DNA from: Desulfuromonadales bacterium
GTDB taxonomy: Bacteria; Desulfobacterota; JAENJC01
NCBI GenBank assembly: GCA_919902985.1
Contig: CAKKSC010000007.1
Location: 16,749 to 80,748 of the forward strand
Direction of reading: 5' to 3'
Length of the DNA: 64,000 nt
Position numbers and translations under genes: made by a program. The notes under the pieces were generated by a model, which was given only the letters and a program-made list of their open reading frames with translations, did no database searches and was not told the DNA's origin. Within the stretch, counting starts at the first letter, position 1, and each line of letters begins with the position of its first letter. Shown here in pieces: positions 6,155 through 63,850 of the stretch.

Positions 6155-6167
6155 GGCACGATCTTGA

Positions 6168-6252
6168 AAATCCCCCTTAATCCCCCTTTTCCAAAGGGGG
6201 AAAAGTTAGGTCCCCCTCTTTGGCAAAGAGGGGTTAGGGGAGATTTTTGGAG
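6168..6252. repeat. poly-C/poly-G tandem hairpin repeat, copy a
   Basis: CCCCCTTTtccAAAGGGGG followed by CCCCTCTTTggcAAAGAGGGG, then AGGGGAGATTTT. Intergenic between gspF and the exeA-like gene. Confidence 0.7.
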
Positions 6253-9699: not shown

Positions 9700-10911
9700 A
9701 TGATGCGGCTCTCTACACATCGCAAGTCACTCTTCACCAACAAAAATGGTTTTACCCTCATTGAACTGGCAATGGTCATGATAATTGTCGGTCTCCTTCT
9801 TACTATTGGGATGAGCCTGGTTGGCCCGTTGACAAAGAAGGCCAAGCTTATTGAGGCGAGGGAGGCGGTGAAGGCGGCAAAAGAGGCGGTGCTGGGTTTT
9901 ACTGTAAGGAATAATGGTTTATTGCCCCCACTCTTGCCTAATCCGCCTGGGCCGCTTGGAGCTTCTGGTGCTGCAACAATAGATGCTTGGGGGAAAAATC
10001 TCTTTTATATTAGCGAAACTGAGACTACGCAGGGGACAGGTGTTGATGTTTGCGGCCTTACGACCCCGGTGACTCCTATAACTGTGAGGATGTGTCCTAA
10101 TGTCGCCTGTGCAGCACCAACCAGCACTGTCAGTAATGTTGCCTTAGTGATAATAAGTGGTGCGGATAATTTCAATATACAGACAAACATTAGCGGCGCT
10201 AATAATGTTGATATCTACCCGGTTGATACACCAAACATCGACAATTATACGGTTGCTCCAGATCCGAACAGGCTGGAAAACTATGATGATGTTGTTGTAT
10301 ATGTCTCGCTGGATGAGATCAGGACAGCCAGAGGATGTGCGCAACCGTTGGTCATAACATCGCCGACTACGCTACCGCAGGGTGAAGAGGACTCTTTCTA
10401 TTCGTATTCTCTTCAAGCAATTGGTGGAAGACCTCCGTATACTTGGAGTATAGCCACTCAGCCCGGCAGCGGTCTCACTATGAATGCTTCAGGCTTAATA
10501 TCCGGGACTATTAATGTAAACAATGTGGTTCCCAATACCGGTGAGTTAACGGCATGCAATGGGACGATAAATGTGACGAATGCTACCCTCTCTGATTCTG
10601 GAGGTTCTCCTCCAGTTACGTTCACCGGCATAATCCCTGTGAGACCGAAACCTCTGGCAATATCAAATACCGAGATGCCGACGGCAAAGGTAGGAACGCC
10701 TTACACTGTCACCCTTAATGGATCAGCTGGGAATTCCACGACATACACATGGACACTTACCGCTGGGACCCTACCCACCGGCTTGAATTTGGTTTTAGGC
10801 CAGATAACTGGGACTCCATCGGCTGCCGGGGCACCCAGCTTCACAATCCAGTTGGCAGATCCGTGCCTTACAACAATATCAAAGAGTTTTACGATTACTG
10901 TGAATCCATAA
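9700..10911 (+). CDS. pilin-like protein with C-terminal 'putative Ig' (PF05345-like) domains
   Basis: Prepilin N-terminus NGFTLIELAMVMIIVGLLL. C-terminal repeats of G..Y.Y.L.A.GG.PPYTWS...P.GL.L...G.ISGT. Start taken at ATG 9700 because an AGAGGA RBS precedes it. Confidence 0.65.
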   Translation: MMRLSTHRKSLFTNKNGFTLIELAMVMIIVGLLLTIGMSLVGPLTKKAKLIEAREAVKAAKEAVLGFTVRNNGLLPPLLPNPPGPLGASGAATIDAWGKNLFYISETETTQGTGVDVCGLTTPVTPITVRMCPNVACAAPTSTVSNVALVIISGADNFNIQTNISGANNVDIYPVDTPNIDNYTVAPDPNRLENYDDVVVYVSLDEIRTARGCAQPLVITSPTTLPQGEEDSFYSYSLQAIGGRPPYTWSIATQPGSGLTMNASGLISGTINVNNVVPNTGELTACNGTINVTNATLSDSGGSPPVTFTGIIPVRPKPLAISNTEMPTAKVGTPYTVTLNGSAGNSTTYTWTLTAGTLPTGLNLVLGQITGTPSAAGAPSFTIQLADPCLTTISKSFTITVNP

Positions 10912-10946
10912 TTGCTAAGGGTTGGGCGGTTTTGGGGTCAGCATTT

Positions 10947-10984
10947 CTCCCTCTTTGGAAAAGAGGGGGCAGGGGAGATTTTCA
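10947..10984. repeat. poly-C/poly-G hairpin repeat, copy b
   Basis: CTCCCTCTTTggaAAAGAGGGGG followed by CAGGGGAGATTTT. Lies between convergent genes. Confidence 0.65.
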
Positions 10985-11025
10985 GATAAATGTCTTCTTG
11001 TTTGTGAACTCATTAGTATTTACGG

Positions 11026-12834
11026 TTATTGTACTGTCCCCACCGCATCGTCCTTGCACTCAGTCAACCCTTCCGTAGGAGTGACCGTCACTGTCAGAGT
11101 AGATGCATCCACCGTGGTATCCGTGTCGGCGTCAGTCAGCACAAATGAGATTACAAGCGGTCCTTTTGAAAGCCTGTCAGTCAATGTATGGCTTGTAGTC
11201 CCGCTCAGTGTCCCGATGGTTGCAGAAATGCTTACAGTTGTACCGGAGGGCAGCCAGTTCATGTTCTCGTCCCCCAGCGTGAATGTGAAGGCCTGGGAAG
11301 AGCCGTTTGTAATCGTAAACGGCGTGGATGGCGAAATATCGCAATACACCGGATTTCCTGAAAAGACAAGCCTTAAGGATACCCAGATAGTTTTGCTCGT
11401 CAGACAATTGGCTACTGAACAGCCCGGGCCGTCCCAGACGCCGTTTGCCCCATCGTAGACGCCATTTCCATTTGCATCTATAAATTCTTCAAACGGGTCC
11501 GTGCTTGCGGAAACCACACCGTTGCAATTTTTGATTGTGCCGCTGTTCCAGCATCCGTCATCGTTTTTGTCAATAAACGGCTCTCCGGTATCGGTAAATT
11601 TTTCTCCTGCATCGTAGATGCCGTTGCCGTTGATGTCTTCAAAACCCTCTTCCCCTTGAACAGTAGCTAAAATCGTTGCCCATCCGTCCCGCGGATTATA
11701 GGTAGTGGCCGATGGTTCACTGAGGTCGTTAAAAAATGCATTTGAGACTGGGTCACCTGCAACAGCCGGCGTCACATTAACCGGGATTGGCCACTGGGTT
11801 CTGAACTTTACGGTTGTAAGTCCCGATTCATCGGTCACATTGCTGCTGTCAATGGCCCCGGCCTCTGCATAAAAAGAGACCGTAGTGCTTTTAAGCACAT
11901 TGTAGTTTCCAAATCTGTCGGCAATAAAAGCGCTGATGTCGGCCGTTTTGTTAGACCAAACCAGGCCCGGAAGATTAACTTTTGTTGTTGCAATATTAAA
12001 GTGGGATGCAGACGGGAGCCCGCCGCCAATGGAGATAGCGGAAGATGATGCTGAAAATACCTGGCTTCCTGATGTGACAGAAGCGGCAATGGTAACAGTT
12101 CCCGCTACCGATCCGCTGTTAAGGGTCGTTGAGGCATATCCAGATACTGTGGATGCACTGGCAGTAGTTGGAGTTGTATCCGGGTCCCCTATGTATTCCC
12201 CTCCGGCAGACGGGAGTTTGCCGCCGCCAGGACCTACCATGGCGAAACTGACTGATGTCCCGTCGATTGCAGGGTTCCCGTTAATGTCTTTCACGAGGAA
12301 TTTTATAGTGGAGGTGGATGCCTGTCCGCTCCCTTTGATCCCTATCTTCTGTGGGGAGGCTGAAACGAACTCGACGTTCCCAGTGGCGGGGGCTGATATG
12401 ATAATTACCGCAGTATTGCTCAAGGAGCCGACCTTGGCCGTTACGGTTACGGTGCCTGGAACGGTGGATGCAGTAAAGGTCACACTGGCAACGCCATTTG
12501 AGGTAATGGCCTGGGAGGTTATAGTCCCCATGGCGCTGCTGCTCAGGGTGAAAGATACCGCCGTCCCGTCGGCGACATTCCCTCCTGTTGAGGTGGTAAC
12601 AGCGGCCTTGATGCTTGATGTCGTGCCGGTAGTTATAGTGGAAGGGGTTGCAGTCACCTCCATATTGGCGGCGGTTGCCGCCCCGCTTCCTGAGCCCGTT
12701 CCAATGCTTGCGGCCACTCCGCCATTGTTCTCCGGCAGACCGCTCCCGCCGCATGAATAAAGCATCGACAAAAAGACAATCGCCAATAGGGTACTTGCGG
12801 TACGACTAAGTTTCCATGACTCGTTACTCATCAC
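11026..12834 (-). CDS. large surface lipoprotein with bacterial Ig-like (Big) domains and Asp-rich Ca-binding-like repeats
   Basis: Signal peptide plus Cys. Several Big-like repeats (GTVTVTAKVGS; IKFLVKDINGNPAIDGTSVSF). Paralog of 56012..57781. Confidence 0.6.
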   Translation of the reverse strand: MMSNESWKLSRTASTLLAIVFLSMLYSCGGSGLPENNGGVAASIGTGSGSGAATAANMEVTATPSTITTGTTSSIKAAVTTSTGGNVADGTAVSFTLSSSAMGTITSQAITSNGVASVTFTASTVPGTVTVTAKVGSLSNTAVIIISAPATGNVEFVSASPQKIGIKGSGQASTSTIKFLVKDINGNPAIDGTSVSFAMVGPGGGKLPSAGGEYIGDPDTTPTTASASTVSGYASTTLNSGSVAGTVTIAASVTSGSQVFSASSSAISIGGGLPSASHFNIATTKVNLPGLVWSNKTADISAFIADRFGNYNVLKSTTVSFYAEAGAIDSSNVTDESGLTTVKFRTQWPIPVNVTPAVAGDPVSNAFFNDLSEPSATTYNPRDGWATILATVQGEEGFEDINGNGIYDAGEKFTDTGEPFIDKNDDGCWNSGTIKNCNGVVSASTDPFEEFIDANGNGVYDGANGVWDGPGCSVANCLTSKTIWVSLRLVFSGNPVYCDISPSTPFTITNGSSQAFTFTLGDENMNWLPSGTTVSISATIGTLSGTTSHTLTDRLSKGPLVISFVLTDADTDTTVDASTLTVTVTPTEGLTECKDDAVGTVQ

Positions 12835-12844
12835 AAACCCCTGT

Positions 12845-13288
12845 CTAAGAGACGGTTAATGTCGCAGATGCAAAAGCGGAACCTGAGCGGATTTCGAGAT
12901 TGCTCGTAAATGAAGTTCCGCCGCCGGAAAGATAGTCAACCCGCAGGTAATAGACCCCATCGGCATTTGTCGTAGCAATAAATGGCGAGTTTTTTGGTGT
13001 AGAGCCGTCGTAAAGCTGGGCATAGCCCAAAGGATCGGGAATTGCCACAGGCAGGGAGATTGAGACCTCGGCATTCTGAACAGGATTGTCTTTTTCATCC
13101 TTAATGGTGATCGTAAAATATTGAGTATGGGTGGCAGAGGGGTTAGTGTCGCTGACGGACATGCTAAGTGGATTAATAGAAACAACACTTCCAGTTGGCG
13201 CGGTGATTTTATCGCCTGAGCACCCGGCAATCGCCAGGATCAGAAATATTGTAACAAGAAGCTGATACCACGAGTATTCTTTTCTCAT
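12845..13288 (-). CDS. small Ig-like lipoprotein (paralog of 55491..55943)
   Basis: Lipobox LAIAGC. 147 aa. Clearly similar to the 150-aa protein at 55491 (e.g. IRSGSAFASATLTVS versus VRSGAAFISISITLS at the C-termini). Lies upstream of the large Ig-like gene in the same operon orientation. Confidence 0.5.
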   Translation of the reverse strand: MRKEYSWYQLLVTIFLILAIAGCSGDKITAPTGSVVSINPLSMSVSDTNPSATHTQYFTITIKDEKDNPVQNAEVSISLPVAIPDPLGYAQLYDGSTPKNSPFIATTNADGVYYLRVDYLSGGGTSFTSNLEIRSGSAFASATLTVS

Positions 13289-13436
13289 ACCCTCTCCTGA
13301 CCTGAACTGTACCGCAAATCAATCGATCCAGATACTATCACAACGTATTTAATATTCCAATACTTTAAAGCGCTCCAATATTTCCTGATTTATTCATCCT
13401 TGAATCCTTCCGGTTAATCCCCTATACTTAGCTTGT

Positions 13437-15434
13437 ATGAAAGAAAACAAGCTTGCAGAAGTAGCTGTCCCGGCCCCTCTTGACAGGACATTCCATTATC
13501 TCCTCCCTGAAACCCTCGCTGACAAAGCCGCAGTGGGGATGAGGGTTACTGTCCCCTTTGGCAGGAGGTCTGTGACAGGGTATATCGTCGGTTTTCCTAA
13601 GGATGAAGAACCTGATGATTCCTTTGAGTTGAAGGAGATCAAGGATTTCCCTGATCCTGAACCTGTTTTCAGCCCGGATATGCTCAAGCTTTACAAGTGG
13701 ATTGCTGACTACTATATTGCACCGTTGGGCGAGGTAATCAGCACGGCACTGCCGCCGATTATGAAGAGGATAAAAAAGCAGGGGGCAGTGGTCAGGGATC
13801 AGGGGTCAGTAAGAGTCGAACTGACGGAAATGCAGAGAGAGGCCTTTTCAACCATCATTGCTGCTATGGATGCGAACGAGTTTGCCCCTTACCTGCTTCA
13901 TGGCGTAACCGGCAGTGGAAAGACGGAAGTGTACCTGAGGGTAATTGAAGAGTCTCTTGCGCGAGGGAAGGGGGCCATTGTCCTTGTCCCTGAGATATCC
14001 CTTACGCCTCAGCTCCTGGGACGTTTCAGGTCTCGATTTGGTGATAAGGTGGCCGCCCTTCACAGTGCCCTGTCTGACGGCGAGAGGTATTCGGAGTGGA
14101 TGCGGATAAAAAGGGGGGAGGCCAGGATTGTTGTCGGGGCCAGGTCTGCAATATTTGCGCCCATGGATGAACTTGGCGTTCTGGTGGTGGATGAGGAACA
14201 CGACCATTCATACAAGCAGGAAGAATCTCCGCGATATAACGCCCGAGACCTTGCCGTTGTCAGGGGAAAGATGGTTAAAGGGGTTGTCGTACTTGGCTCC
14301 GCTACTCCGTCAATGGAGTCTTATCATAATGCAAAGACAGGAAAGTTTAATTACCTGAACCTCCCCCACAGGGTTGAGGAGCGACCTATGCCCCAGATCG
14401 CAGTAGTTGATATGAAGGATACAGGCAAAAGGCGGATTTTTTCCAGTCAAATGACGGAATCCTTGAACAGGTGTATCGGGGAGAAAAAGCAGGCGCTACT
14501 CTTTTTGAACAGGAGGGGATTTTCCACGTTCCTGATGTGTTCCGACTGTGGCTTCACCTTTGGCTGTCCCAATTGCAGCATATCTCTGATATACCACCAG
14601 GGAGAAGGGTTGCTCAGGTGTCATTACTGTGACTATGTACAAAAGGCCTTTCCTGTGTGTCCTGCCTGCAAAGGTGTAAATGTGGGGCATTTGGGCCTTG
14701 GGACCGAAAAGGTTGAGGACGAGATAAAAAAGTCCTTCCCCGATTCCAGGGTTGCCAGGATGGACAGGGATACGGTTTCAAGGAAAGGCTCCCACGAACG
14801 AATCCTCAAGAGGATGGAAGAGGGGGATCTGGACATACTTATAGGGACCCAGATGGTGACAAAGGGACATGACTATCCAAATATTACTATGGTTGGCGTT
14901 ATCTCTGCAGATATATCCTTAAACCTGCCCGATTTTAGAGCGGCTGAAAGGACATTCCAGCTTCTTACTCAGGTGTCGGGCAGGGCTGGAAGAGGAGACG
15001 TCCTTGGGAAGGTGATAATCCAGACATTTAACCCCGATCACTATAGCATTGTTGCTGCCAGGAGCCATGATCTGGATGGTTTTTACAGGGAGGAGACGAC
15101 CTTCAGGAAGGAACTGGGGTATCCTCCTTTTTCCAGACTGATAAGCATAAGGCTCAGGGGGAACAGCGAGGCCAGAACTGCCTTAGCCGCTAATAATCTT
15201 GGCGAGCTTGCCAGGAATGAGATGAAGGCGTGGAAGGGTGTAACCATACTTGGCCCCAGCAAGGCCACTATATATAAGATCCGAGGGAAATACCGCTGGC
15301 ATATCCTGGTCAAAGGAAAAGACAGCGGCAAGCTTCATTCCTTTGTAAGGAAGCTGATTTCTCTGACGAGGGAGGGGTCGGGTTTCAGGGGGGTTGAGCT
15401 ACAGGTGGATGTAGACCCGTTGAACATGCTTTAG
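13437..15434 (+). CDS. priA: primosomal protein N' (replication restart helicase PriA)
   Basis: Walker A GVTGSGKTEVY, DEEHD box, and a Cys-rich zinc-binding region CSDCGFTFGCPNCS...CHYCDY. Confidence 0.9.
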   Translation: MKENKLAEVAVPAPLDRTFHYLLPETLADKAAVGMRVTVPFGRRSVTGYIVGFPKDEEPDDSFELKEIKDFPDPEPVFSPDMLKLYKWIADYYIAPLGEVISTALPPIMKRIKKQGAVVRDQGSVRVELTEMQREAFSTIIAAMDANEFAPYLLHGVTGSGKTEVYLRVIEESLARGKGAIVLVPEISLTPQLLGRFRSRFGDKVAALHSALSDGERYSEWMRIKRGEARIVVGARSAIFAPMDELGVLVVDEEHDHSYKQEESPRYNARDLAVVRGKMVKGVVVLGSATPSMESYHNAKTGKFNYLNLPHRVEERPMPQIAVVDMKDTGKRRIFSSQMTESLNRCIGEKKQALLFLNRRGFSTFLMCSDCGFTFGCPNCSISLIYHQGEGLLRCHYCDYVQKAFPVCPACKGVNVGHLGLGTEKVEDEIKKSFPDSRVARMDRDTVSRKGSHERILKRMEEGDLDILIGTQMVTKGHDYPNITMVGVISADISLNLPDFRAAERTFQLLTQVSGRAGRGDVLGKVIIQTFNPDHYSIVAARSHDLDGFYREETTFRKELGYPPFSRLISIRLRGNSEARTALAANNLGELARNEMKAWKGVTILGPSKATIYKIRGKYRWHILVKGKDSGKLHSFVRKLISLTREGSGFRGVELQVDVDPLNML

Positions 15435-20778: not shown

Positions 20779-21469
20779 GAAAATGGTAAAGGCCGGCAGC
20801 GGATTCACTCCGGGGCGGCCGCGGGGTGGGGCGGCATCGGAGGAGCGAAGCGACGTACGGGTCTCCGATAAGATCAGTAAGATTAGAACATGTCTGGGTT
20901 GCAGGGTCTCTAAGGAAAAGGAAGAGCTTGTAAGGCTCATGAAATCTCCAGACGGGATTGTAGTTATAGACTATAAAAGAACCCTCCCCGGCAGAGGTGC
21001 TTATGTCTGCCCGACAGAGTCATGCATCAGGGATGCATTTTCAAGGAAGCAGATTACAAGGGTGTTTAAAGTTTCACAGATTGAGGGAGTGGATGAGTTC
21101 CTTGACCGCTTAAGGAAGCTGATTCTTTACAGGATTTCATCGCTCCTTTCCCTTGCAAGAAAGGCAGGGAAGGTTGTGGATGGAAGAGAGGCTGTCGAAA
21201 AGGGGATGGAGAAAGGGACTATAAAACTTCTCGTCTTTGCTGAAGACCTTTCTCCCCTGAGTTTGAAGGATATGAAAGATATATGTCTCAAGAGAGGAAT
21301 AATGTATTATACATACATCTCAAAGGACGGTATGGGTGGCCTTATAGGTAAGGGAGAGAGGGGTGCACTCGGCATAGCGGATGAATCTTTCTCATCCTTA
21401 TTGGGAAAGGAATTTGAAAGGTTTAAGAGTCTGGGAAGTATGGGCTCAGGGGGTGGAAAAAATGGCTAA
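20771..21469 (+). CDS. YlxR (DUF448)-L7Ae/YlxQ-like fusion protein
   Basis: N-terminal part carries the CLGCR...YVC zinc-ribbon motif of YlxR. C-terminal part has the L7Ae-like ARKAGKVV...[10 protein letters not shown] motif. One continuous ORF between nusA and infB. Confidence 0.6.
20801..20869 (+). repeat. about 70-nt conserved element, copy A (nusA-ylxR junction, overlaps the annotated ylxR 5' region)
   Basis: GGATTCACTCCGGGGCGGCCGCGGGGTGGGGCGGCATCGGAGGAGCGAAGCGACGTACGGGTCTCCGAT. About 80% identical to copy B. Confidence 0.6.
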
Positions 21470-23840: not shown

Positions 23841-23907
23841 TGGACAGTGGCCGGTGATCGGTGATCAGTTGATGCCGACCACTGACGTCTGACCACTGAC
23901 CACTGAA
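23841..23907. repeat. heptamer-array inverted pair (GTGGNCN x4 / CTGACCA x4) directly after the infB stop
   Basis: (GTGGACA)(GTGGCCG)(GTGATCG)(GTGATCA)...(CCGACCA)(CTGACGT)(CTGACCA)(CTGACCA). The arms are imperfectly complementary. Confidence 0.7.
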
Positions 23908-24655: not shown

Positions 24656-25592
24656 GGAACTACAAAACAACAATACCTTTCTGATTGTATCCCATATTAA
24701 CCCTGATGGAGATGCCATAGGCTCGTCGCTTGCCCTTGCAGCCGGTCTAACGGCCACAGGGAAAAAGGTTACTGTATTCAACAATGACAGTGTCCCTGAT
24801 ATAGTCAGATTTTTACCTGGCTCAAGCGAGATAGTACATGAACTATTAGCTGGCGATCAGTTTGATGCTGCCATTGTTGTGGACTGCGGCACCCCGAAGC
24901 AGCTTGGCGATAAGTTCAATGCCTTCAAGGGTTACAAGAAACTCCTTAATATAGACCACCATGCAACAAACCTCAATTTTGCAGATGTAGTTTTCCTTGA
25001 CCCCGATGCCTGTGCCACAGGGGCGATGATTTACAGGATACTCAAGAGTATGCAGGTTGAGATAACAAGGGCGATCGCCCTGTCTATTTACACAACCATT
25101 GTTGTGGATACCGGCTCCTTCCATTATGGAAACTCAAACCCGGAGGCTTTCAGGATCGCAGGTGAGATGGTGGATATAGGAGTTGAGCCGTGGTTTGTGG
25201 CTGAAAACCTTTATGAGAGCCAGCCTGAAGGAAGGATAAGGCTTCATTCTATGGCGTTAAATACCCTCACCACCCATTATGACGGCAAGATCGGGTTCAT
25301 CATGGTATCAAAAGAGATGTACAAGGCCACTGGGACAACGGCAGAGGACACAGACGGGATTGTGAATTATGCCAGGTCTCTGAGGGGTGTGGAGGTGGCA
25401 ATATTTATTAGAGAGATATCACCTGATAAGTACAAGGCCTCTCTCCGCTCCAAGGGTAGGGTGGATGTTACAAAGATTGCGGGAAGGTATGACGGAGGAG
25501 GTCATGTTAACGCAGCAGGCTGTGTGCTTAAGGGAAGCCTGCCGGAGGTAAAGAAGAATCTGTTAGAGGCAACTGAGGAGATACTGAAATAA
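24636..25592 (+). CDS. DHH/DHHA1 phosphoesterase (NrnA-like oligoribonuclease/pAp phosphatase)
   Basis: DHH motifs SHINPDGDAIGS and NIDHH. DHHA1 GGGH motif near the C-terminus. Confidence 0.8.
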   Translation: MMERIVKELQNNNTFLIVSHINPDGDAIGSSLALAAGLTATGKKVTVFNNDSVPDIVRFLPGSSEIVHELLAGDQFDAAIVVDCGTPKQLGDKFNAFKGYKKLLNIDHHATNLNFADVVFLDPDACATGAMIYRILKSMQVEITRAIALSIYTTIVVDTGSFHYGNSNPEAFRIAGEMVDIGVEPWFVAENLYESQPEGRIRLHSMALNTLTTHYDGKIGFIMVSKEMYKATGTTAEDTDGIVNYARSLRGVEVAIFIREISPDKYKASLRSKGRVDVTKIAGRYDGGGHVNAAGCVLKGSLPEVKKNLLEATEEILK

Positions 25593-25594
25593 AA

Positions 25595-25676
25595 GTGCAA
25601 AATGTAAAATGCAAATGATAAAATTAATACACCTCCATTTTACGCTTTACACTTTGAAATTTGCACTTTGAAATTT
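25595..25676. repeat. AT-rich heptamer-array inverted pair (TGCAAAA-type / CACTTTG-type)
   Basis: (TGCAAAA)(TGTAAAA)(TGCAAAT)...(CATTTTA)(CGCTTTA)(CACTTTG)(AAATTTG)(CACTTTG). Lies between nrnA and truB. Confidence 0.65.
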
Positions 25677-26897: not shown

Positions 26898-27026
26898 AGA
26901 CTATTCACGCAAAGACGCAAAGAGCGCAAAGATAAATAGAAATGGACTAAATCCTTTCTTGGCGTACTGGCGCCTTTGCGAGCAGAATATGGTTTTTGAG
27001 TTGAATAATAATATAAGGTCCGCAAA

Positions 27027-27096
27027 GGATTCAATCCGGGCTGACCGCGGGGTACGGGGACATCGGAGGAGAAGAGCGACGCACGTGTCCCCGATC
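27027..27096 (+). repeat. about 70-nt conserved element, copy B (rpsO-pnp leader)
   Basis: GGATTCAATCCGGGCTGACCGCGGGGTACGGGGACATCGGAGGAGAAGAGCGACGCACGTGTCCCCGAT. Contains an 8-bp stem CGGGGACA/TGTCCCCG. Confidence 0.6.
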
Positions 27097-29224: not shown

Positions 29225-29253
29225 AGGGCTTAGAAGGAGAATACCGATCCAAG

Positions 29254-29288
29254 AGGCACCTCCAGGGTATTGGAAGGTGCCTTTTGTG
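29254..29288 (+). terminator. stem-loop terminator candidate after pnp
   Basis: AGGCACC(tcc...gga)GGTGCCT followed by TTTTGTG. Weak T-tract. Confidence 0.45.
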
Positions 29289-29313
29289 CTATTGTAGTAA
29301 CGTCGTATAATAT

Positions 29314-29386
29314 TATCCCATCCCCACCTCAATCCTCCCCTTGAAGGCGAGGAAGTCTCCCTCTCCTTCAGGGAGAGGGTGGGTTC
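29314..29386. repeat. poly-C/poly-G tandem hairpin repeat, copy c (nearly identical to copy e)
   Basis: TATCCCATCCCCACCTCAATCCTCCCCTTGAAGGCGAGGAA...CTCCCTCTCCTTCAGGGAGAGGGTGGG. Upstream of the M16 peptidase gene. Confidence 0.7.
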
Positions 29387-30661: not shown

Positions 30662-30742
30662 GTTTGTTCCTCCCCTTGCCAAGGGGAGGCTGGGTGGGGT
30701 AAATCCACCACCCCTGCCCCTCCTTATCAAGGAGGGGATTAT
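30662..30742. repeat. poly-C/poly-G tandem hairpin repeat, copy d
   Basis: CCTCCCCTTgccAAGGGGAGG ... CCCCTCCTTatcAAGGAGGGG. Confidence 0.65.
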
Positions 30743-37310: not shown

Positions 37311-37372
37311 TAAAATGCAAAATGCAAAATTAAAAACTAAAATTTGCAATTTACAATTTGCATTTGATCAAC
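37311..37372. repeat. AT-rich heptamer-array inverted pair that encodes the PilW leader
   Basis: (ATGCAAA)(ATGCAAA)(ATTAAAA)(ACTAAAA)(TTTGCAA)(TTTACAA)(TTTGCAT). Translated as MQNAKLKTKICNLQFAFDQ. Confidence 0.6.
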
Positions 37373-38365: not shown

Positions 38366-38456
38366 GTATCCCATCCCCACCTTAATCCTCCCCTTGAAGG
38401 GGAGGAAATAAGCATTCTCCCTCTCCCTCAGGGAGAGGGTTGGGGTGAGGGTGGAT
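38366..38456. repeat. poly-C/poly-G tandem hairpin repeat, copy e
   Basis: The first 40 nt match copy c with 2 mismatches. Two hairpins. Lies between pilW and pilX. Confidence 0.7.
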
Positions 38457-38472
38457 TTAGAGAGGTATTGAA

Positions 38473-45542: not shown

Positions 45543-45797
45543 ATGAAGCAGAATATAAACAACGTTAGGAAGTTGAGAGAGGCCAAGCTGATGAGCAAGG
45601 CCGAATTGGCAAGAAAGGCCGGGATATCAGTCCTGACAGTGGACAGAATAGAGAAGGGTCACCCATGCAGGCTGGACACGAAAAGGAAGGTGGTCATTGC
45701 CCTGGGTCTCAGGGTTCCTGAGGCGGACAAGGTTTTTAAGAGCAGCCAGAAATCAGAAGACAGGGGTCAGGGGTCAAGGGTCAGGGGTCAGAAGTAA
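45543..45797 (+). CDS. XRE-family helix-turn-helix transcriptional regulator
   Basis: HTH LMSKAELARKAGISVLTVDRIEKG. The C-terminal tail GQGSRVRGQK is encoded by a GGGGTCA heptamer array. Confidence 0.6.
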   Translation: MKQNINNVRKLREAKLMSKAELARKAGISVLTVDRIEKGHPCRLDTKRKVVIALGLRVPEADKVFKSSQKSEDRGQGSRVRGQK

Positions 45798-45855
45798 CCG
45801 TGAGGTTAATATCATTAGCTTTTACCTCTCACGTCTTACGTTTCACGTCTCACGG
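45761..45855. repeat. composite heptamer arrays: (CAGGGGT)x5 in the XRE C-terminus, then a CCGTGAGG / CTCACG inverted pair
   Basis: CAGGGGTCAGGGGTCAAGGGTCAGGGGTCAGAAGT...CCGTGAGG...CCTCTCACGTCTTACGTTTCACGTCTCACGG. Upstream of pilM. Confidence 0.7.
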
Positions 45856-48124: not shown

Positions 48125-48195
48125 TAGTGGTCAGTTGTCAGTGGTCAGTGGTCAGATTTGTCTAATGCTTATCTCTTACTGCTTATTGCTTACTG
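48125..48195. repeat. heptamer arrays (AGTGGTC x4, then CTTACTG x4) spanning the pilO-pilP junction
   Basis: The second array encodes the PilP signal peptide. The arrays are complementary in RNA only if G-U pairs are allowed. Confidence 0.6.
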
Positions 48196-48668
48196 TTGTT
48201 ACGGGATGCAACAAAGAAGAGGTTGCGCCAGCCCAGGTTGCGCCGGTCAAAAAGGTTGTTGCGCCTGTGCAGACCTCAGTAACTACCGAAAAAATGCCTG
48301 AGTATGTCTATAACCCGGCAGGCAAGAGAGATCCATTTAAATCTTTTATAGAAGTAGTTACAAGTAAAAGGGAGCGTGCAGTTGCTCCGATAACACCTCT
48401 TCAGAGTTATGACCTGGCGGCCCTCAGGCTTGTGGGGATCATGCTGCTGCCCGGGAAGAGGGTAGCAATAATAGAGGACCCCACAGGTAAAGGCTACCAC
48501 GTTAAAGTAGGGACATCAATAGGAATGAACGATGGGGTAGTAGTTGAGATTTTAAAGGATGAGTTGATCGTTGAAGAGAAATACCTGGATGAAACTGCAC
48601 AAACAAAGGCAAGAAAGGTTTCAGTAAAGATCCCGAAAGAAGAGGATAGAGGAGGAGAAGGCCGATGA
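48165..48668 (+). CDS. pilP: type IV pilus assembly lipoprotein PilP
   Basis: Signal peptide with lipobox LLLTVVTGC at ATG 48165. C-terminal beta-domain. Overlaps pilQ. Confidence 0.7.
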   Translation: MLISYCLLLTVVTGCNKEEVAPAQVAPVKKVVAPVQTSVTTEKMPEYVYNPAGKRDPFKSFIEVVTSKRERAVAPITPLQSYDLAALRLVGIMLLPGKRVAIIEDPTGKGYHVKVGTSIGMNDGVVVEILKDELIVEEKYLDETAQTKARKVSVKIPKEEDRGGEGR

Positions 48669-51640
48669 GAATCGATGCTATAGTAAATAAAACCAACATG
48701 TTATCGCTCTTGAGTCTGATTATCTTATTGTCGGCCTGTTCGCCAAAAGTCGCGCAGGTAAGGCCGGAAGAACAGGCAAAAGCCATATCCATTAGCAGTC
48801 TGGAGATTGGAAAGAGTGATGACAGGTCTATCCTGACTATTAAGGCAACTGAATCATTGCAGGGAAATTACACGGTCATTAAGGTGTCAGAACCGCCCAA
48901 GGTGTTTATAGAGATGCCAACTGCGGATGTGGGAAATTTCGAAGGCACGATAGATGCTGTTAATGGAGTCATCTCAAAGGTAGTGACCTCAAGGCGTGAT
49001 GTTTCCGGCGCCATGATAGAGATTAGCCTTTTGTCCTTAGTAGAGCATGAGGTCAAGGCAGATGGAAATACGCTGGAGATATATTTGGGAGCGCCTCATG
49101 GAGAAGGAGCCCCATCTGAGAAAGTAGAAGAAGCCCCTATAGAAGAGAAAGCGGAGGCCGGCTCTACAACAGATAGTAAGGAGCAGTCACCCGCCGAAAT
49201 AGTTGTGGAGCCAAAGACAGAAGAAAAGGCTGAAGCTCCCCAGAAGGCCTTAAAAGTGAAGGCAGTTGAGATTAAAAAGGAGGGAAAATTTACAAGGGCA
49301 GAAATAATTACTGACGGCGAAGTTTCGGATTATAATGTCTTTGACTTAAAGTCCCCTAACAGGGTTGTTGTTGATGTCAGGAATGCCAGGGAGATATTGA
49401 CAAAAAGGGATATTAAGGCTGTCTCGCCTCACATCAATGGCGCCAGGCTTGGGCGGCATGACGGGCAGGTGAGGGTCGTATTTGACTATAAGGGAGGTGT
49501 CAAGCCTTATGAGGTAGTTAAGGAGAGTGACAGGATCTCCATTATATTTGGAAAGAAGCCAACAACTGTAGTGGCAAAAGTCGAGAAGGCAGCCGTAAAG
49601 GAAGAAGCCCCGAAGATAGAGGAAAAGGTAGAGGTAGAGAAAAAGTCAGAGACGACTACAGTAGAACCGGAGCCTGCTGCCACTGCTGAGGCCCCAAAAA
49701 AGGCTTTAAAAATAACAGATGTGAAGATTCAGAAGTCAGGCAAGTTCACAAGTGCAGAGATAATAACAGATGGAGACCCGTCCACATACAAGGTCTATGA
49801 CCTTAAGTCGCCGGACAGGGTTATCGTTGACATCATGAATGCAAGGGACATTTCTGCAAAAAAGAAGATCAAGGCAGTTTCCCCTCATATCAAGGGCGCA
49901 AGACTCGGGCGTCATGACGGACAGGTGAGGGTTGTATTTGACTATAAGGGGAGCATTGAGCCTTATTTTGTATTAAAAGGGGCTGACAGGATCACGATAT
50001 TGTTTGGAAAGAAGCCAGAAACTACTGAAGCAAAAGTCGAGAAAGCAGCAAAGGAAGAGGCACCGAAAATAGAAGAAAAGGCAGAGGAGGCGCCTGCTGC
50101 AGTCGAGGCAACGCCTGAGGTTAAGGAAGAGGTAAAGACAGAGACCAAGGCGGAGATCCAGAAAGAAGAGTCAAAGGTAGAAGAGGCTGCAAGCGCCAAG
50201 CCTGTTGAGGTTCCTGCCGAAGTAAAACACGCGGTAGAAAAGGAAGAGATAAAGACAGAGGAAAAAACCGAAGCAAAAGAGAAGGCTGTCGCCGCTCCTT
50301 CAGTCGAAGCGGCGGTCGAGGAGAAGACCGAGCCGGAACCAGAAAAGAAAACTGCTGCCGAGAGTGCATCTGAGGAGATGGCAAAGGTTTATAATGGACA
50401 GAAGGTCACCCTGGAGTTCAAGGATGCTGACATAAAAAATATATTCAGGATTATTGCAGAGGTAAGCGGCTACAATATGATAATTGACAGCGCGGTGGTC
50501 GGAAAGGTCACCATCAGGCTTGTAAACGTCCCATGGGACCAGGCACTTGATATATTGCTGGAGACAAATAACCTGGGGATGAAAAAGGTGGGAAATGTAA
50601 TCAGGGTGCTGCCAGCCGCAATAGTGAAAAAGGAGGAAGAGGAGAAGCTGGCTTCAAAGAAGGCTATGGAAAAGCTTGAAGATATGGTGACTAAAGTCAT
50701 ACCTGTCAGCTATGCAACGGCATCCGATATCTCTTCCAAGTTGAAGGGCGTTATGACGGACAGGGGCACTGCCATTGTTGATGATAGGACAAATACCATA
50801 ATCCTGAAGGATATACAGAAAAGTGTTGATGAAGCGGAAAAGCTTGTGATGGGTTTGGACGAACCGACAAAGCAGATTATTATAGAGGCCAGGATTGTGA
50901 CGGCAAACACAAACTTCGCGAGAGACCTCGGAGTTCAATGGGGCGCTGGCTATGCGGCTGATGCCGCACATGGAAACCCGACAGGTTATTACTTTCCGAA
51001 TTCATACAATGTATCCGGTGGGGGAGGCGGTTCCTTCGCCCTCAATCCACCAGCATCAGGTGGCGTCGGCGCATCCTCGGGCGGGGGAGGTGTTGTGGGT
51101 ATCAATTTCGGGTCGATTAATAATACCTTGAACTTGGACCTTCGGTTGAGCGCGCTTGAGAGTCAGGGTTGGGGAAAGGTTGTCTCCAGCCCGAAGATAA
51201 TAACCCTTGACAATAAGCTGGCATCTATCTCGCAGGGAATTTCCATACCATTTGAGACCACATCTGCTTCAGGCACACAAACGACTTTCGTGGATGCAAA
51301 CCTCAATCTGACTGTAACGCCGCACGTGACTAACGATGACAGGATAAGTATGAAGATAAAGGTCAGCAAGAACAGGCCGGATCTTGCCTTTAAAGGGGCC
51401 AGCGGAGCACCGTCGATTGATAAGAAGGAAGCAACTACGGAGATACTTGTTAAGGATGGAGATACTACCGTTATAGGCGGTATCTATGAGATTGATAAGG
51501 GTGAGAGCGAAACATTTACGCCATTCCTTGGCAGGATACCTATCCTCGGATGGTTATTTAAATCCAAGAAAAAAACTGAAACAAAGACAGAACTACTAAT
51601 ATTTATAACCCCCAAAATAGCACGCGATATAGCAGGATAA
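48665..51640 (+). CDS. pilQ: type IV pilus secretin PilQ (two AMIN domains)
   Basis: Two highly similar AMIN domains. Low-complexity E/K-rich linkers. Secretin C-terminus IGGIYEIDKGESETFTPFLGRIPILGWLFKSKKK...ELLIFITPKI. Confidence 0.9.
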   Translation: MRIDAIVNKTNMLSLLSLIILLSACSPKVAQVRPEEQAKAISISSLEIGKSDDRSILTIKATESLQGNYTVIKVSEPPKVFIEMPTADVGNFEGTIDAVNGVISKVVTSRRDVSGAMIEISLLSLVEHEVKADGNTLEIYLGAPHGEGAPSEKVEEAPIEEKAEAGSTTDSKEQSPAEIVVEPKTEEKAEAPQKALKVKAVEIKKEGKFTRAEIITDGEVSDYNVFDLKSPNRVVVDVRNAREILTKRDIKAVSPHINGARLGRHDGQVRVVFDYKGGVKPYEVVKESDRISIIFGKKPTTVVAKVEKAAVKEEAPKIEEKVEVEKKSETTTVEPEPAATAEAPKKALKITDVKIQKSGKFTSAEIITDGDPSTYKVYDLKSPDRVIVDIMNARDISAKKKIKAVSPHIKGARLGRHDGQVRVVFDYKGSIEPYFVLKGADRITILFGKKPETTEAKVEKAAKEEAPKIEEKAEEAPAAVEATPEVKEEVKTETKAEIQKEESKVEEAASAKPVEVPAEVKHAVEKEEIKTEEKTEAKEKAVAAPSVEAAVEEKTEPEPEKKTAAESASEEMAKVYNGQKVTLEFKDADIKNIFRIIAEVSGYNMIIDSAVVGKVTIRLVNVPWDQALDILLETNNLGMKKVGNVIRVLPAAIVKKEEEEKLASKKAMEKLEDMVTKVIPVSYATASDISSKLKGVMTDRGTAIVDDRTNTIILKDIQKSVDEAEKLVMGLDEPTKQIIIEARIVTANTNFARDLGVQWGAGYAADAAHGNPTGYYFPNSYNVSGGGGGSFALNPPASGGVGASSGGGGVVGINFGSINNTLNLDLRLSALESQGWGKVVSSPKIITLDNKLASISQGISIPFETTSASGTQTTFVDANLNLTVTPHVTNDDRISMKIKVSKNRPDLAFKGASGAPSIDKKEATTEILVKDGDTTVIGGIYEIDKGESETFTPFLGRIPILGWLFKSKKKTETKTELLIFITPKIARDIAG

Positions 51641-51694: not shown

Positions 51695-52960
51695 ATGAGC
51701 ACTCTGAGATATCTGACTGCTGGCGAGTCGCACGGTAAAGGACTATCAGCTTTAATGGAGGGTATTCCGGCTAACCTTGAATTAACAGCTGAGTATATTA
51801 ACAATGAACTTGCCCGCCGACAGATGGGTTATGGACGCGGTGGAAGGATGAAGATCGAGACCGATACCGCGGAGATACTTTCAGGTATAAGGTTTGGCAG
51901 GACACTTGGCTCACCTATAGCCCTGTTCATTGAAAACAGAGATTGGGAAAACTGGCAGGAAGTGATGAGTTCACCCCCCCCTCAATCCCCCCCTTTAATA
52001 AAAGGGGGGGTAGAGGGAGTTGTCACCCGCCCCCGCCCAGGCCATGCAGACCTTTCTGGCGCAATCAAGTACAACCAAAAGGACATCAGGAACATATTAG
52101 AGAGGTCGAGTGCGCGGGAGACGGCTGCAAGGGTAGCAGTAGGTTCTGTTGCAAAAAAACTTCTTGAGGAGTTCGGCATAAGGGTTTTCAGCTGGGTTAC
52201 AGAGATAGGAGGACAGCAGTGGTCAGAGGTCAGTGGTCGGAGCTCAGTCTATTACTCGCCGCTCCTCGCTTCTCGCTCCTCGCTTTCTGAGTTATACGAG
52301 AAGGCTGAAAAATCCGAGGTTAGATGTCCAGATGCGGCAGCAACAGAGGCCATTAAGAAAAGGATAGACGAGGCCAGAAACAGCGGAGATTCTCTCGGCG
52401 GAATATTTGAGATTGTCGTAAGCGGCGCTCCGGTTGGCCTTGGGAGTCACGTCCAGTTTGACAGGAAGCTGAATGCGAGGCTTTCCATGGCCCTTATGAG
52501 CATACAGGCTATCAAAGGGGTAGAGTTTGGACTTGGATTTGAGGCGGCGACACGGCACGGCTCTGAGGTGCATGATGAGATATGCTTCAGGGGTCAGGGG
52601 TCAGGGGTCAAGGGTCAGGAATTCAAACCACCGACCACTGGGTTTTACAGGAAGACCAACAATGCGGGTGGCATAGAGGGCGGGATGTCGAATGGTGAGG
52701 ATATAGTCATCAGGGCGGCAATGAAACCGATACCTACTCTGTATAAACCGCTTCGCTCAGTGGACATAGTAACAAAAGAGGTCTTTGAGGCCACTGTCGA
52801 GAGGTCGGATATATGTGCCGTCCCAGCCGCTTCAGTTGTGGGCGAAGCCGTTGTAGCTTTCGAGATCGCCAATGCCGTGCTTGATAAATTCGCCGGCGAC
52901 TCGATGGAAGAGATGATGAAGAATTACAACAGCTATATGGAATATGTGAAGGGGTTTTAG
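51695..52960 (+). CDS. aroC: chorismate synthase (carrying three in-frame repeat insertions)
   Basis: Motifs [33 protein letters not shown]. 421 aa versus about 360-390 for typical AroC. Confidence 0.9.
51972..52036. repeat. poly-C/poly-G hairpin repeat, copy g, in frame inside aroC
   Basis: CCCCCCCCTCAATCCCCCCCTTTaataAAAGGGGGGGTAGAGGGAG. Translated as [19 protein letters not shown] immediately before the conserved RPGHAD motif. Confidence 0.7.
52216..52288. repeat. heptamer arrays (CAGTGGT x3, then TCCTCGC x4) in frame inside aroC
   Basis: Translated as [26 protein letters not shown]. There is about 20 aa extra here relative to canonical AroC. Confidence 0.6.
52588..52619. repeat. (GGGGTCA)x4 array in frame inside aroC
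   Basis: CAGGGGTCAGGGGTCAGGGGTCAAGGGTCAGG translated as GQGSGVKGQ. The same unit occurs at 45761. Confidence 0.65.
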
Positions 52961-52983: not shown

Positions 52984-53100
52984 TAACTCCCCTCCCTTGG
53001 CGGGAGGGGATTGAGAGGAGGGGGATCGAATTTGGTGACGTTTCACCCTCACCCTGACCCTCTACCCATCCGGGCATAAATCCCGTCAAGGGAGAGGGAA
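52984..53100. repeat. poly-C/poly-G tandem hairpin repeat, copy f
   Basis: CCCCTCCCttggcgGGAGGGGA...GAGGAGGGGG...CCCTCACCCTGACCCTCTACCCATCCGGGCATAAATCCCGTCAAGGGAGAGGG. Between aroC and aroK. Confidence 0.65.
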
Positions 53101-58130: not shown

Positions 58131-59177
58131 ATGACGGCAGAAATTAAAGATGATGCACCTATTCCGCCTGAGATAAACAAATACCTGGCAATTCTCAGTA
58201 AAGATCCCGGCTCGATGGTGTTCGCGCCACTGGCGGAGGCCTACAGGAAGGCTGGGATGCTGGATGAGGCGATTGCAACTGCCAGGGACGGCTTGAAGCT
58301 CCGTCCTGACTATGTGAGCGGAATGGTTGCCCTCGGGAGGGCATATTTTGAAAAGGGTTTATTGGCCGAGGCCAGAGAAAACCTGGAGAAGGTGCTTATA
58401 ATTGCGCCGGACAACATCATTGCAGCCGGGATATTAGAGGAGATAAAAAGCAAGTGGTCAGTGGTCAGGGGCCAGGGGCCAGAAAAGCCGGAACCTGTTA
58501 CCCCTGACCTTGAACCTGACAAGGCAGTCAGTCAGGAGTCAGAAGTCGGCAGTCAGAAGATAGATGAGCCGGAGATTGAAGAACTCACTGAACTGGAAGA
58601 GTTTATAGAGTTAGAAGAGGTAGATGCAGAAGAAAAGTCGGGAGATTTTCAGGTTGAGGAGATAAGCTTTGAGGCCCCGGAACCTGGATTGGGGCTTGCA
58701 AAAGAGGTAAAAGAGACAGAGGAAGAGAAAACTGCGGAAGATATAGGCATATGGGGGGAAGAAGCTGCAAGCGAGTTGGAAGCGGAACCGGCGATATCCG
58801 AGGTCATTGAACCTGAAGCACAGTTAAGAAGCCCGGAGGTTGAGGAGAAAGAGGCAAGGTCAAGGAAGGAAATAACCACAGAGACCATTGCCGACCTATA
58901 TATAAAGCAGGGCTATTTTGACAAGGCTATTGACATATACCAGACCCTGTATGATGCTGACCCTGGAAATGATGATATAAAGAGGAAACTTGATGAACTG
59001 AAAAAGCAGTTGTCAGGGGTCAGTGATCAGGGGGCAGAGGTAAAGAGACCAGAGGAAGAGTTAGTGGTAAGGTGGGCTGAGTCGACCGGACAAGGAGCGG
59101 AACTCAAAACTGATGAGAATATAGACAGGCTGGGATCATGGCTTAAGACAATTCAGAGCGAGAGGCGGAAGGGCTGA
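58131..59177 (+). CDS. TPR-repeat protein with acidic linker
   Basis: TPR repeats at the N-terminus and C-terminus. The E/P-rich middle region is partly encoded by heptamer arrays. Confidence 0.55.
   Translation: MTAEIKDDAPIPPEINKYLAILSKDPGSMVFAPLAEAYRKAGMLDEAIATARDGLKLRPDYVSGMVALGRAYFEKGLLAEARENLEKVLIIAPDNIIAAGILEEIKSKWSVVRGQGPEKPEPVTPDLEPDKAVSQESEVGSQKIDEPEIEELTELEEFIELEEVDAEEKSGDFQVEEISFEAPEPGLGLAKEVKETEEEKTAEDIGIWGEEAASELEAEPAISEVIEPEAQLRSPEVEEKEARSRKEITTETIADLYIKQGYFDKAIDIYQTLYDADPGNDDIKRKLDELKKQLSGVSDQGAEVKRPEEELVVRWAESTGQGAELKTDENIDRLGSWLKTIQSERRKG
58454..58558. repeat. heptamer arrays (AGTGGTC x2, AGGGGCC x2; inverted CCCCTGACC; AGTCAGN x5) in frame inside the TPR gene
   Basis: Translated as WSVVRGQGPEKPEPVTPDLEPDKAVSQESEVGSQK. 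Confidence 0.6.
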
Positions 59178-63767: not shown

Positions 63768-63850
63768 TTGCAAACTGTAAATTGCAAAATTAAGATGTGG
63801 ATTAGAAAGCTTTTTGTACTTTTCACTTTGCATTTTGCAATTTGAAATCT
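63768..63850. repeat. AT-rich heptamer-array inverted pair after gcvH
   Basis: (TTGCAAA)(CTGTAAA)(TTGCAAA)ATT...(CACTTTG)(CATTTTG)(CAATTTG)AAATC. Confidence 0.6.

Follow-up and report, generated by a model that had tools for sequence, protein, structure and literature searches.

Very dense, probable BoxC/PIT/TM repeats in a groundwater deltaproteobacterium, and the association of related units with a DUF559 nuclease gene

A stretch of 64,000 nucleotides (nt) from a Desulfuromonadales bacterium (contig CAKKSC010000007.1 of assembly GCA_919902985.1, positions 16,749 to 80,748 of the forward strand; hereafter the window) carries one or two short hairpins, each with a C-rich and a G-rich arm, at seven loci that we labelled a to g. 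These loci very probably hold members of the repeat family described as BoxC, as PIT elements and as 'intrastrand triplex motifs' (TM/TMECO; Holder et al. 2015, PMC4666352). The family is thus already known, and the window is a new and very dense instance of it. As the repeat is of a known kind, finding it is no discovery; what merits attention are the copies that stand in frame in the chorismate synthase gene of this lineage and the link between related units elsewhere and the small nuclease family DUF559. The latter gives the BoxC/triplex-motif field a candidate enzyme where the published survey looked and found none.

The window was scanned for perfect hairpins (stem of at least 8 nt, loop of 1 to 8 nt), and 50 dinucleotide-preserving shuffles served as the null. 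The scan revealed 21 hairpins, ten of which combine a pyrimidine-only 5' arm with a purine-only 3' arm, and all ten lie within the seven loci; the shuffles contained a mean of 0.02 such hairpins, and the opposite polarity occurred 0 times in the window. A three-block scan, which requires a mirroring tail next to the hairpin, returned 12 instances against 0.43 in the shuffles, and 10 of these 12 are family members. Altogether, the seven loci, all of which had been correctly reported in the first-pass annotation as carrying one or two hairpins, contain 12 units, six on each strand, which form five inverted doublets (a, c, d, e and g) and two singlets (b and f). The tails point outward in doublets a, c, e and g and inward in doublet d. 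With 12 units in 64 kb, or about 1 per 5 kb, the repeats are roughly 40 times as dense as in Escherichia coli MG1655, which has about 1 per 200 kb.

When all units are aligned in one orientation, each reads as an A/T-rich edge, a C-rich tail (e.g. CCCATCCCCACC, ATCTCCCC or CACCCTCACCC), a linker of 2-7 nt (TTAAT, TCAAT, TAA, CAA or TG) and the hairpin, that is, as three blocks composed of the C-rich tail, a pyrimidine arm mirroring that tail and a complementary purine arm. The mirror symmetry between tail and arm holds at 74 of 101 positions, while random upstream 22-mers gave 41.3 +/- 4.3 matches and never more than 57 in 2000 trials. A pyrimidine arm, a purine arm and a mirroring third block, with stems of 8-15 and loops of 1-6 nt, are what define BoxC/PIT/TM structurally, and this is the organization found here, together with the multiple copies, the lack of strand bias and the inverted pairs typical of BoxC (12 units, six per strand, five doublets). 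The stems are heterogeneous, differing mainly by transitions that preserve pairing. The likeness among the copies exceeds that of GC-rich hairpins, as it extends to a conserved tail, the linker and the mirror symmetry, and the proposal that they form a dispersed repeat family is borne out. A common end, AGGGGAGATTTT, had been ascribed to several copies; it is present in a and b and in none of the others.

The published TMECO pattern, CCCTCNCCCN3-6GGGNGAGGGN3GGGNGAGGG (PMC4666352), has one exact match in the window, at positions 38419-38451 in unit e2, and 0 matches in 100 shuffles, the other units being variants that do not fit it; e2 is only a few bases apart from E. coli TMECO no. 2 (Table 1 of PMC4666352). 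Furthermore, the doublet and singlet consensus recurs in the genome paper of Geobacter bemidjiensis, where it appears without a family name among 'palindromic sequences' (PMC2996986, Table S6), in about 50 and 60 table rows, respectively. The family is thus a known one, which the first-pass annotation had not recognized. A search of the literature with the sequence strings CCCTCCCCTT and AAGGGGAGGG returned eukaryotic matches only. TMECO are reported to be 'always intergenic' in E. coli (PMC4666352), from which unit f departs, as it lies within a gene; this property has been reported for one species and is outside the structural definition.

E. coli MG1655 has 23 TMECO, 3610 were counted in 262 proteobacterial genomes, and many G/C-rich motifs were noted in cyanobacteria (PMC4666352). 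A scan of species-representative genomes with a 23-base pattern derived from units e1 and d1 gave at least 120 stretches, and the matches listed come from Nostoc, Anabaenopsis, Scytonema, Microcoleus, Xanthomonadales, Rhodocyclales, Burkholderiales, Cellvibrio, Nitrospirales, Nitrospinota, Geobacter, Syntrophus, a Hainich deltaproteobacterium and others. Their likeness goes beyond the pattern used for the scan, since 'cccat' precedes CCCCACC and the doublet architectures recur. Across the 120 loci listed, which represent many phyla, 232 pyrimidine-first hairpins were found against 2 of the reverse polarity, and the cross-phylum consensus, CCCCACCCTAACCCTCCCC, has four C-tracts. E. coli genomes have a median of 17 BoxC-like places. 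Among viral contigs, 29 stretches fit the general pattern, with no obvious link.

Copies c and e had been described as nearly identical over about 90 bp, and recent dispersal had been deduced from this. The near-identity was confirmed by the repeat finder (41 nt at 95% and 28 nt at 93%), but the length was not, because the alignment has about 70 nt in common, interrupted by an indel of 7 nt, and copy c is cut short at its 3' end, where the G-rich tail is missing. Recent dispersal is not required to explain it. An exact 26-mer shared by c and e is found on at least 120 metagenome contigs, in singlets, in e-type doublets and in tails-inward doublets with a loop of 19-21 nt, and the c/e identity thus reflects a widespread subfamily consensus; each copy may simply be near this consensus and not the product of a recent copy event.

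A TMECO single strand forms a triplex in vitro, as found with oligonucleotides by circular dichroism and nuclear magnetic resonance (NMR), and the sequence around TMECO is more variable than control loci in E. coli (PMC4666352). By analogy, a single-stranded unit of the window would fold as a hairpin into the groove of which the tail, or the G tail of the other strand, is laid as a third strand, and inverted pairs of units would form long palindromes or three-way junctions; both triplex formation and local instability are carried over here from the E. coli literature. Minimum-energy folds, computed with programs that model Watson-Crick pairs only, gave long hairpins for doublets a and e with RNA parameters (z-scores -3.9 and -4.2) and, with DNA parameters, three-way junctions for a and e and three hairpins for d (z-scores -3.7 to -5.5). 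A scan of the whole window at Rfam gathering thresholds matched only a tRNA, while a permissive scan of copy e returned sub-threshold miRNA-like hairpins and Whalefall-1 at 22 bits (threshold 37).

The positions of the units relative to genes come from Pfam matches and from the genes called on the identical ENA contig. Eleven of the 12 are intergenic. Doublets a, c, d, e and g occupy short spacers between co-directional genes, where the next start codon follows after about 10-40 nt, so the proximity to start codons noted in the first-pass annotation holds for these five, but neither for b, which lies between convergent genes, nor for f, which lies inside aroC. Copy c is preceded by a T-run hairpin at the 3' end of pnp (AGGCACCT..AGGTGCCTTTTGT, positions 29254-29291; seen in the sequence, not flagged by the terminator scan) and by a promoter-like stretch, CTTGTAAAGAAGC...GCTATATT, that is conserved across relatives upstream of the M16 peptidase gene (window 29225-29316; L007:9786-10000; L011:3903-4076; L008:2440-2828). 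Being downstream of both, copy c would be part of the M16 peptidase leader.

The sites themselves turn over rapidly. In four relatives, the M16 peptidases of which are 94, 85, 81 and 78% identical to that of the window, copy c is absent, and in each of them the promoter-like stretch is followed by a different hairpin insert. Thus, doublet c stands in the pnp-M16 spacer of the window, where L007 and L011 have unrelated CCGG-type hairpins and L008 has a long inverted repeat. The next spacer, between the M16 peptidase gene and acn, contains the tails-inward doublet d in the window; the relatives at 94% and 85% have a related tails-outward doublet that includes the long-loop variant, the 81% relative (L006) has heptamer repeats, and the 78% relative (L007:11261-11340) has a classical GTAG-headed REP doublet, GTAGGGGCAACC...GGCCGCCCCTAC, indicating that related lineages carry different repeat families at one site. 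The mobile or unstable character proposed for the repeats therefore stands in the sense that copies are gained, lost or replaced at orthologous sites of relatives. Filled and empty versions of one site between conserved flanks were not recovered, and the sequence around 102 copies reveals only an A/T-rich preference 5' of CCCATCC. The Hainich assemblies showed no strain-level polymorphism in the repeats, their loci being either identical or different outside them. Five short-read (Logan) contigs from the same strain (L002, L004, L005, L135 and L136) have a terminus within copies c, d, e and g, at window positions 29351, 29391, 30675, 38399 and 53085, as is expected because the sequence is multi-copy. 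Such repeats break assemblies, and their under-representation on short contigs is to be expected.

Unit f (positions 51967-52014, + strand; CACCCCCCCC-TCAAT-CCCCCCCTTTAATAAAAGGGGGGG) is embedded in frame in aroC (positions 51695-52960, + strand), the product of which is a chorismate synthase (Pfam E = 2.8e-125; E = 8.8e-148 to PDB 1q1l). The unit codes for 16 residues in a variable loop that is 6 residues longer than its Aquifex counterpart, and the gene also hosts two in-frame heptamer arrays. An alignment of 30 AroC homologues revealed three hypervariable loops. Between DNA flanks that are identical, loop 1 carries unit f in both the window and L138 and paired heptamer arrays in L139, and loop 3 carries a (GGGGTCA)4 array in both the window and L139 and, in L138, a complete a-type doublet of about 78 nt encoding KISPDPSLLKRGKSSPPLEKGDKGG. 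The AroC proteins of these relatives with swapped inserts in loops 1 and 3 are 86-89% identical. Close relatives thus carry a different repeat at exactly the same codons, in surface loops of an essential enzyme, which makes aroC a natural experiment on protein-loop tolerance and repeat-driven hypervariability. In L139 (positions 10001-11302, compared with window positions 51960-52020; AroC 86% identical), the loop-1 heptamer array starts with the gene's own GAGTTCA and then runs into a partly complementary (AACTCAA)n array, which suggests that heptamer arrays may grow from local sequence. Taken together, the units are non-coding, non-autonomous repeats and not gene-specific regulators; they occupy the few permissive sites of a compact genome, namely co-directional spacers, 5' leaders and tolerant protein loops, and turn over fast there. 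This lineage shows how far such repeats can go, with operon spacers and 5' leaders filled and coding loops entered.

The open frames of 269 repeat-bearing loci (1.8 Mb) were clustered all-against-all. The recurrent neighbors among the 120 genome loci listed belong to generic families only (ABC ATPases, response regulators and kinases). After metagenome loci were added, one small family recurred at high identity across unrelated contexts, and it proved to be DUF559 (Pfam E about 1e-38), a Vsr-like PD-(D/E)xK endonuclease with a homologue of known structure (PDB 3HRL). In all ten DUF559 loci examined at the DNA level (L209, L194, L196, L171, L102, L055, two in L295, L289 and L297) an inward-tailed unit is located just upstream of the gene, and in seven of them the gene is bracketed on both sides, by CCTCCCCTTCAAGGGGAGG-ATTAA-GGTGGGGATGGG followed by TTTCT-ATG on the left and by AGA followed by CCCATCCTCACCCC-AT-CCCTCTCCTTGAAGGAGAGGG on the right. 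The loci include a Nitrospirales chromosome (L055), two DUF559 copies in spacers of one nuo operon (L295) and a metagenome-assembled genome, GCA_030646755.1, that also provided the 81% relative L006 and the right-hand unit of which (L297) has the TTAAT linker of c and e. The DUF559 frame usually reads into the right-hand unit, giving C-terminal tails such as THPHPxPLLEGEG, DPSSPLPSP or SHPPPNLPLEGGG; a unit-derived C-terminal peptide of this kind was found in at least 90 of the 120 closest homologues, compared with 6 of 240 control proteins, and in 94 of 148 representatives sharing no more than 50% identity with each other. The physical association between DUF559 and the units is thus tight and spans phyla. 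Within the literature searched, no paper linking DUF559 to these repeats was found. As the family comprises 24,469 representative clusters at E <= 0.001, E. coli YcjD among them, the link gives a large family a concrete, testable role. Another small gene of nuclease fold (PDDEXK_3), the third in L295 (positions 13073-13444), lies between nuoH and nuoI with an inverted repeat, GGATAAAATC...GATTTTATCC, and may be a spacer-dwelling mini-element of a different family.

E. coli YcjD ends in ...RRSPSP*, reading into a degenerate unit, and a TMECO, GTCCCCTCGCCCCTCTGGGGAGAGGGTTAGGGTGAGGGG, is located between ycjD and fabI; BoxC was first described downstream of envM, the former name of fabI. In K-12 (L296, positions 1351040-1351406), part of the 3' end of ycjD is duplicated downstream of the gene, GGAGACGGTGCTGGAGAATATTC..., and degenerate and intact BoxC units come next, an arrangement that is a sign of past rearrangement. 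The ycjD gene is accessory, with 3378 of 5426 complete E. coli genomes carrying it. Among 60 E. coli records taken at even spacing, those with a complete ycjD-adjacent BoxC locus had 13-28 BoxC-like places (median about 19) and those without it mostly 1-8 (median about 4); in one ST131 genome, which has two such places, an efflux operon occupies the position expected for ycjD. This link between ycjD and copy number is only suggestive.

To our knowledge, the means by which BoxC/PIT/TM repeats spread have gone unexplained since the early 1990s. We propose that full-length relatives of the tails-inward doublet would be those that carry a DUF559 gene between the two units, that DUF559 may nick or cut the folded units, and that repair could then copy the units, or the DUF559 gene, into new or existing sites in a homing-like manner. 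Spread by cutting and repair copying, for which we infer both the catalytic role of DUF559 and the copying step, is put forward tentatively, at not quite an even chance. The wider reading, according to which BoxC/PIT/TM units would be the terminal modules and gene-less derivatives of a DUF559 mini-element, the enzyme would recognize the folded ends and drive their copying, perhaps also seeding the four-unit heptamer arrays at the same sites, and DUF559 would be to these repeats what RAYT is to REPINs, is possible as well, with the balance leaning visibly against it. Several observations weigh against our proposal. The window itself has no DUF559 gene within its 64 kb, and its stem sequences are heterogeneous, unlike those of a recently amplified master copy. 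Neither a target-site duplication nor a clean empty site was recovered, and transposition as such is unsupported. No identical DUF559 element was found in two contexts, P0325 having one context across 11 contigs, and no sign of recent DUF559 transposition was obtained; likewise, the 19-21 nt loops of the short tails-inward doublets have a weak consensus and no clear DUF559 remnant, and the idea that they derive from the gene was dropped. The E. coli correlation is essentially one phylogenetic contrast (B2 versus the rest). Finally, Holder et al. report no transposase, integrase or other mobility gene near the E. coli copies and no stable triplex in duplex DNA or in vivo (PMC4666352).

As to what the units are, two readings other than BoxC/PIT/TM were weighed. 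The hairpins could be convergent functional structures, such as terminators, mRNA stabilizers or translation regulators in which an anti-SD-like pyrimidine arm would sequester a Shine-Dalgarno-like purine arm, and not homologous repeats; most copies indeed stand just upstream of start codons, their purine arms resemble AGGAGG, T runs follow a2 and b, and d2 scores as terminator-like. However, a2, b and d2 are the only units with any T run and the set as a whole does not qualify as intrinsic terminators, copy c is preceded by a separate T-run hairpin at the pnp 3' end, one copy lies in coding sequence and another between convergent genes, presence at the same genes varies among close relatives, tails and linkers are conserved beyond the needs of a hairpin, and E. 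coli PIT elements had neither promoter nor terminator activity in earlier experiments (summarized in PMC4666352), all of which makes convergence most improbable. We hold it to be similarly improbable that the units are G-quadruplex or i-motif elements of the same class as the G-rich heptamer quartets, which do occupy the same niches: four G- or C-tracts are present in e2, f and g2 and four C-tracts in the cross-phylum consensus, but these three of the 12 units are the only ones to fit the canonical pattern G3+N1-7 (four tracts of at least 3), with a, b, c and d failing it, and NMR indicated a triplex and not a G-quadruplex for TMECO (PMC4666352). The quadruplex or i-motif propensity raised in the first-pass annotation is accordingly not a property of the family.

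With respect to how the units spread, the first-pass annotation had suggested REP or REPIN elements mobilized in trans by a RAYT (IS200/IS605-like Y1) transposase. Short imperfect palindromes that are mostly extragenic and occur as singlets and as inverted doublets forming long hairpins agree with the definition of REPINs (PMC3116915), yet neither GTAG nor CGTC is found at either end of the units, and phmmer with E. coli RayT gave no match in the window or in the flanks, about 1 Mb in all, of the 120 genome loci listed. In Nostoc punctiforme the RAYT-adjacent REP, gttgggtttcgttcctcaacccaac, is unrelated, even though Nostoc is rich in BoxC-type units, the true GTAG-REP doublet in the M16-acn spacer of L007 looks quite different, and one family extending across phyla would be atypical, as RAYT-linked REPs are, according to the REPIN/RAYT papers, mostly vertical and lineage-specific. 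This origin is hardly to be expected. It is a good deal less improbable, though still unlikely, that no enzyme is involved and that, as in the instability model of Holder et al., non-B folding stalls replication while slippage, template switching and error-prone repair create, delete and swap units. This would agree with the greater variability of TMECO loci than of control loci in E. coli (PMC4666352), with the heterogeneous stems and their mainly pairing-preserving transitions, with the finding that a given aroC or spacer site may hold TM units in one lineage and heptamer arrays in another, and with the L139 array that begins with the flanking gene's GAGTTCA, suggesting local slippage; near-identical sequences of 26 to 35 nt across phyla and at unrelated loci are nevertheless beyond local slippage, and why inverted units should so regularly bracket one gene family is left unexplained. 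Alternatively, DUF559 could be a selfish passenger, a free-standing homing-type gene that targets the loops of tails-inward doublets, while the units spread otherwise. DUF559 is always at the loop position of such a doublet, the tightly constrained 19-21 nt loop of empty doublets could be its homing site, the DUF559 mini-genes in nuo operon spacers resemble free-standing homing endonuclease genes, and, according to the literature, a homing endonuclease of a group I intron belongs to the Vsr/DUF559 clade of PD-(D/E)xK nucleases. Against this, no filled and empty alleles of one locus were recovered, and E. coli lineages without the ycjD locus have far fewer units, which fits a mobilizer at least as well. 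As a complete account of the repeats, we rate the passenger gene as somewhat unlikely; on the narrower question of whether DUF559 acts as mobilizer of the units or homes into the doublets they form, the two stand on an equal footing.

The individual units, beside unit f described above, are as follows. Doublet a, which occupies the whole spacer between the T2SS-F and AAA-ATPase genes, consists of a1 (positions 6167-6205, + strand), with tail AATCCCCCT, linker TAA and hairpin TCCCCCTTT-TCC-AAAGGGGGA (7 of 9 mirror matches), and of a2 (positions 6209-6250, - strand), in which the hairpin CCCCTCTTTG/CAAAGAGGGG is followed by TTA and the G tail GGGGAGATTT. Singlet b is found at positions 10943-10985 on the - strand (CTCCCTCTTTGGAAAAGAGGGGGCAGGGGAGATTTT). 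In doublet c, which lies 16 nt ahead of the M16 peptidase start codon, c1 (positions 29317-29355, + strand; CCCATCCCCACC-TCAAT-CCTCCCCTTGAAGGCGAGG) has one stem mismatch and c2 (positions 29356-29386, - strand; TCTCCCTCTCCTTCAGGGAGAGGG) has its G tail truncated to TGGG. Doublet d, with the same arrangement as that bracketing DUF559 genes elsewhere, comprises d1 (positions 30665-30706, - strand; CCTCCCCTTGCCAAGGGGAGG-CT-GGGTGGGGTAAAT) and d2 (positions 30700-30741, + strand; CCACCACCCC-TG-CCCCTCCTTATCAAGGAGGGG). Doublet e lies between pilW and pilX and is formed by e1 (positions 38370-38409, + strand; CCCATCCCCACC-TTAAT-CCTCCCCTTGAAGGGGAGG, 8 of 10 mirror matches) and e2 (positions 38413-38457, - strand; CCCTCTCCCTCAGGGAGAGGG-TTG-GGGTGAGGG). 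In doublet g, g1 (positions 52984-53035, - strand; TCCCCTCCCTTGGCGGGAGGGGA-TTG-AGAGGAGGGGGATC) has 8 of 9 mirror matches, and g2 (positions 53044-53098, + strand) is a long-loop variant, CACCCTCACCC-TGA-CCCTCT, a 25-nt loop and AGGGAGAGGG, that is also present in relatives L008 and L139.

The window contains many tandem 7-nt arrays, almost always of about four copies and often with two different arrays side by side (positions 13786-13810, 23877-23906, 25590-25624, 37312-37366, 45761-45791, 45827-45854, 48126-48155, 48166-48195, 52217-52284, 52587-52619, 58453-58482, 58530-58559 and 63813-63844). Both G-rich heptamers (CAGGGGT, AGTGGTC) and heptamers of other composition (AAAATGC, TGCTTAC) occur. 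Four-unit heptamer repeats have been described in Xanthomonas and Nostoc (PMC4692102) and in Geobacter metallireducens (PMC2700814); the window arrays match this published kind and share sites with triplex-type units in relatives. In addition, an 81-nt direct repeat (positions 20789-20869 and 27015-27095; 78% identity, or 81% over a 140-nt alignment) is located at the nusA/ylxR junction and in the rpsO-pnp spacer, has no Rfam match at E <= 0.01 and could be a shared leader or processing site of both transcripts. The pilQ gene (positions 48665-51640) has an internal direct repeat of 300 nt (49229-49528 and 49685-49984; 72% identity, starts 456 nt apart), and PilQ, which also has Lys/Glu-rich short repeats, comprises 991 residues here, 973 in another Hainich assembly and 1075-1083 in relatives.

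Among known systems, BoxC/TMECO is the one that the repeats share most with: the three-block architecture, the sequence (e2), GC-richness, multiple copies in both orientations with frequent inverted pairs, a copy number varying among relatives and locally variable surroundings. They differ from it in their density (about 1 unit per 5 kb compared with 23 in 4.6 Mb of MG1655), in more varied stems (T/A-rich variants in a, b and f), in the in-frame intragenic copy, in the host, which is an uncultured deltaproteobacterial (Thermodesulfobacteriota-like) organism of the Hainich groundwater, and in the DUF559 gene linked to related loci, whereas published work has no linked gene. The Gbem_R20xx and Gbem_R21xx entries of G. 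bemidjiensis, ...CCCCCTCCCCTTGACGGGAGGGGG-YYR-GGGGGTGGGG...CCCCACCCC-YR-CCCCCTCCCGTCAAGGGGAGGGGG, correspond to the same unit as the tails-inward doublet, plus singlets, in a related deltaproteobacterial subsurface lineage, with the function listed as unknown; they form an annotation table only, and the intragenic family of that genome is not stated to be this one (PMC2996986).

The remaining likenesses are more partial. REP and REPIN elements are also short palindromic extragenic repeats found as singlets and as inverted doublets forming long hairpins, and REPs flank RAYT much as inverted units flank a small nuclease-type gene here; the units differ from them in lacking a GTAG/CGTC head, in having a mirror-repeat tail, in spanning phyla as one family and in being linked to a PD-(D/E)xK gene, DUF559, and not to an HUH Y1 transposase. 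Similarly, miniature inverted-repeat transposable elements are small non-autonomous palindromes with longer, gene-carrying versions that have the same ends, a place that DUF559 mini-elements, the ends of which match the units, would take; in the present case no target-site duplication was seen, DUF559 is no known transposase, and the ends are hairpins with a third-strand tail. Finally, Rickettsia palindromic elements and the Geobacter intragenic multicopy sequences resemble unit f in being palindromes tolerated in frame in surface loops; the sequences are unrelated, however, and in the present lineage relatives have either a coding copy or heptamer arrays at the same codons.

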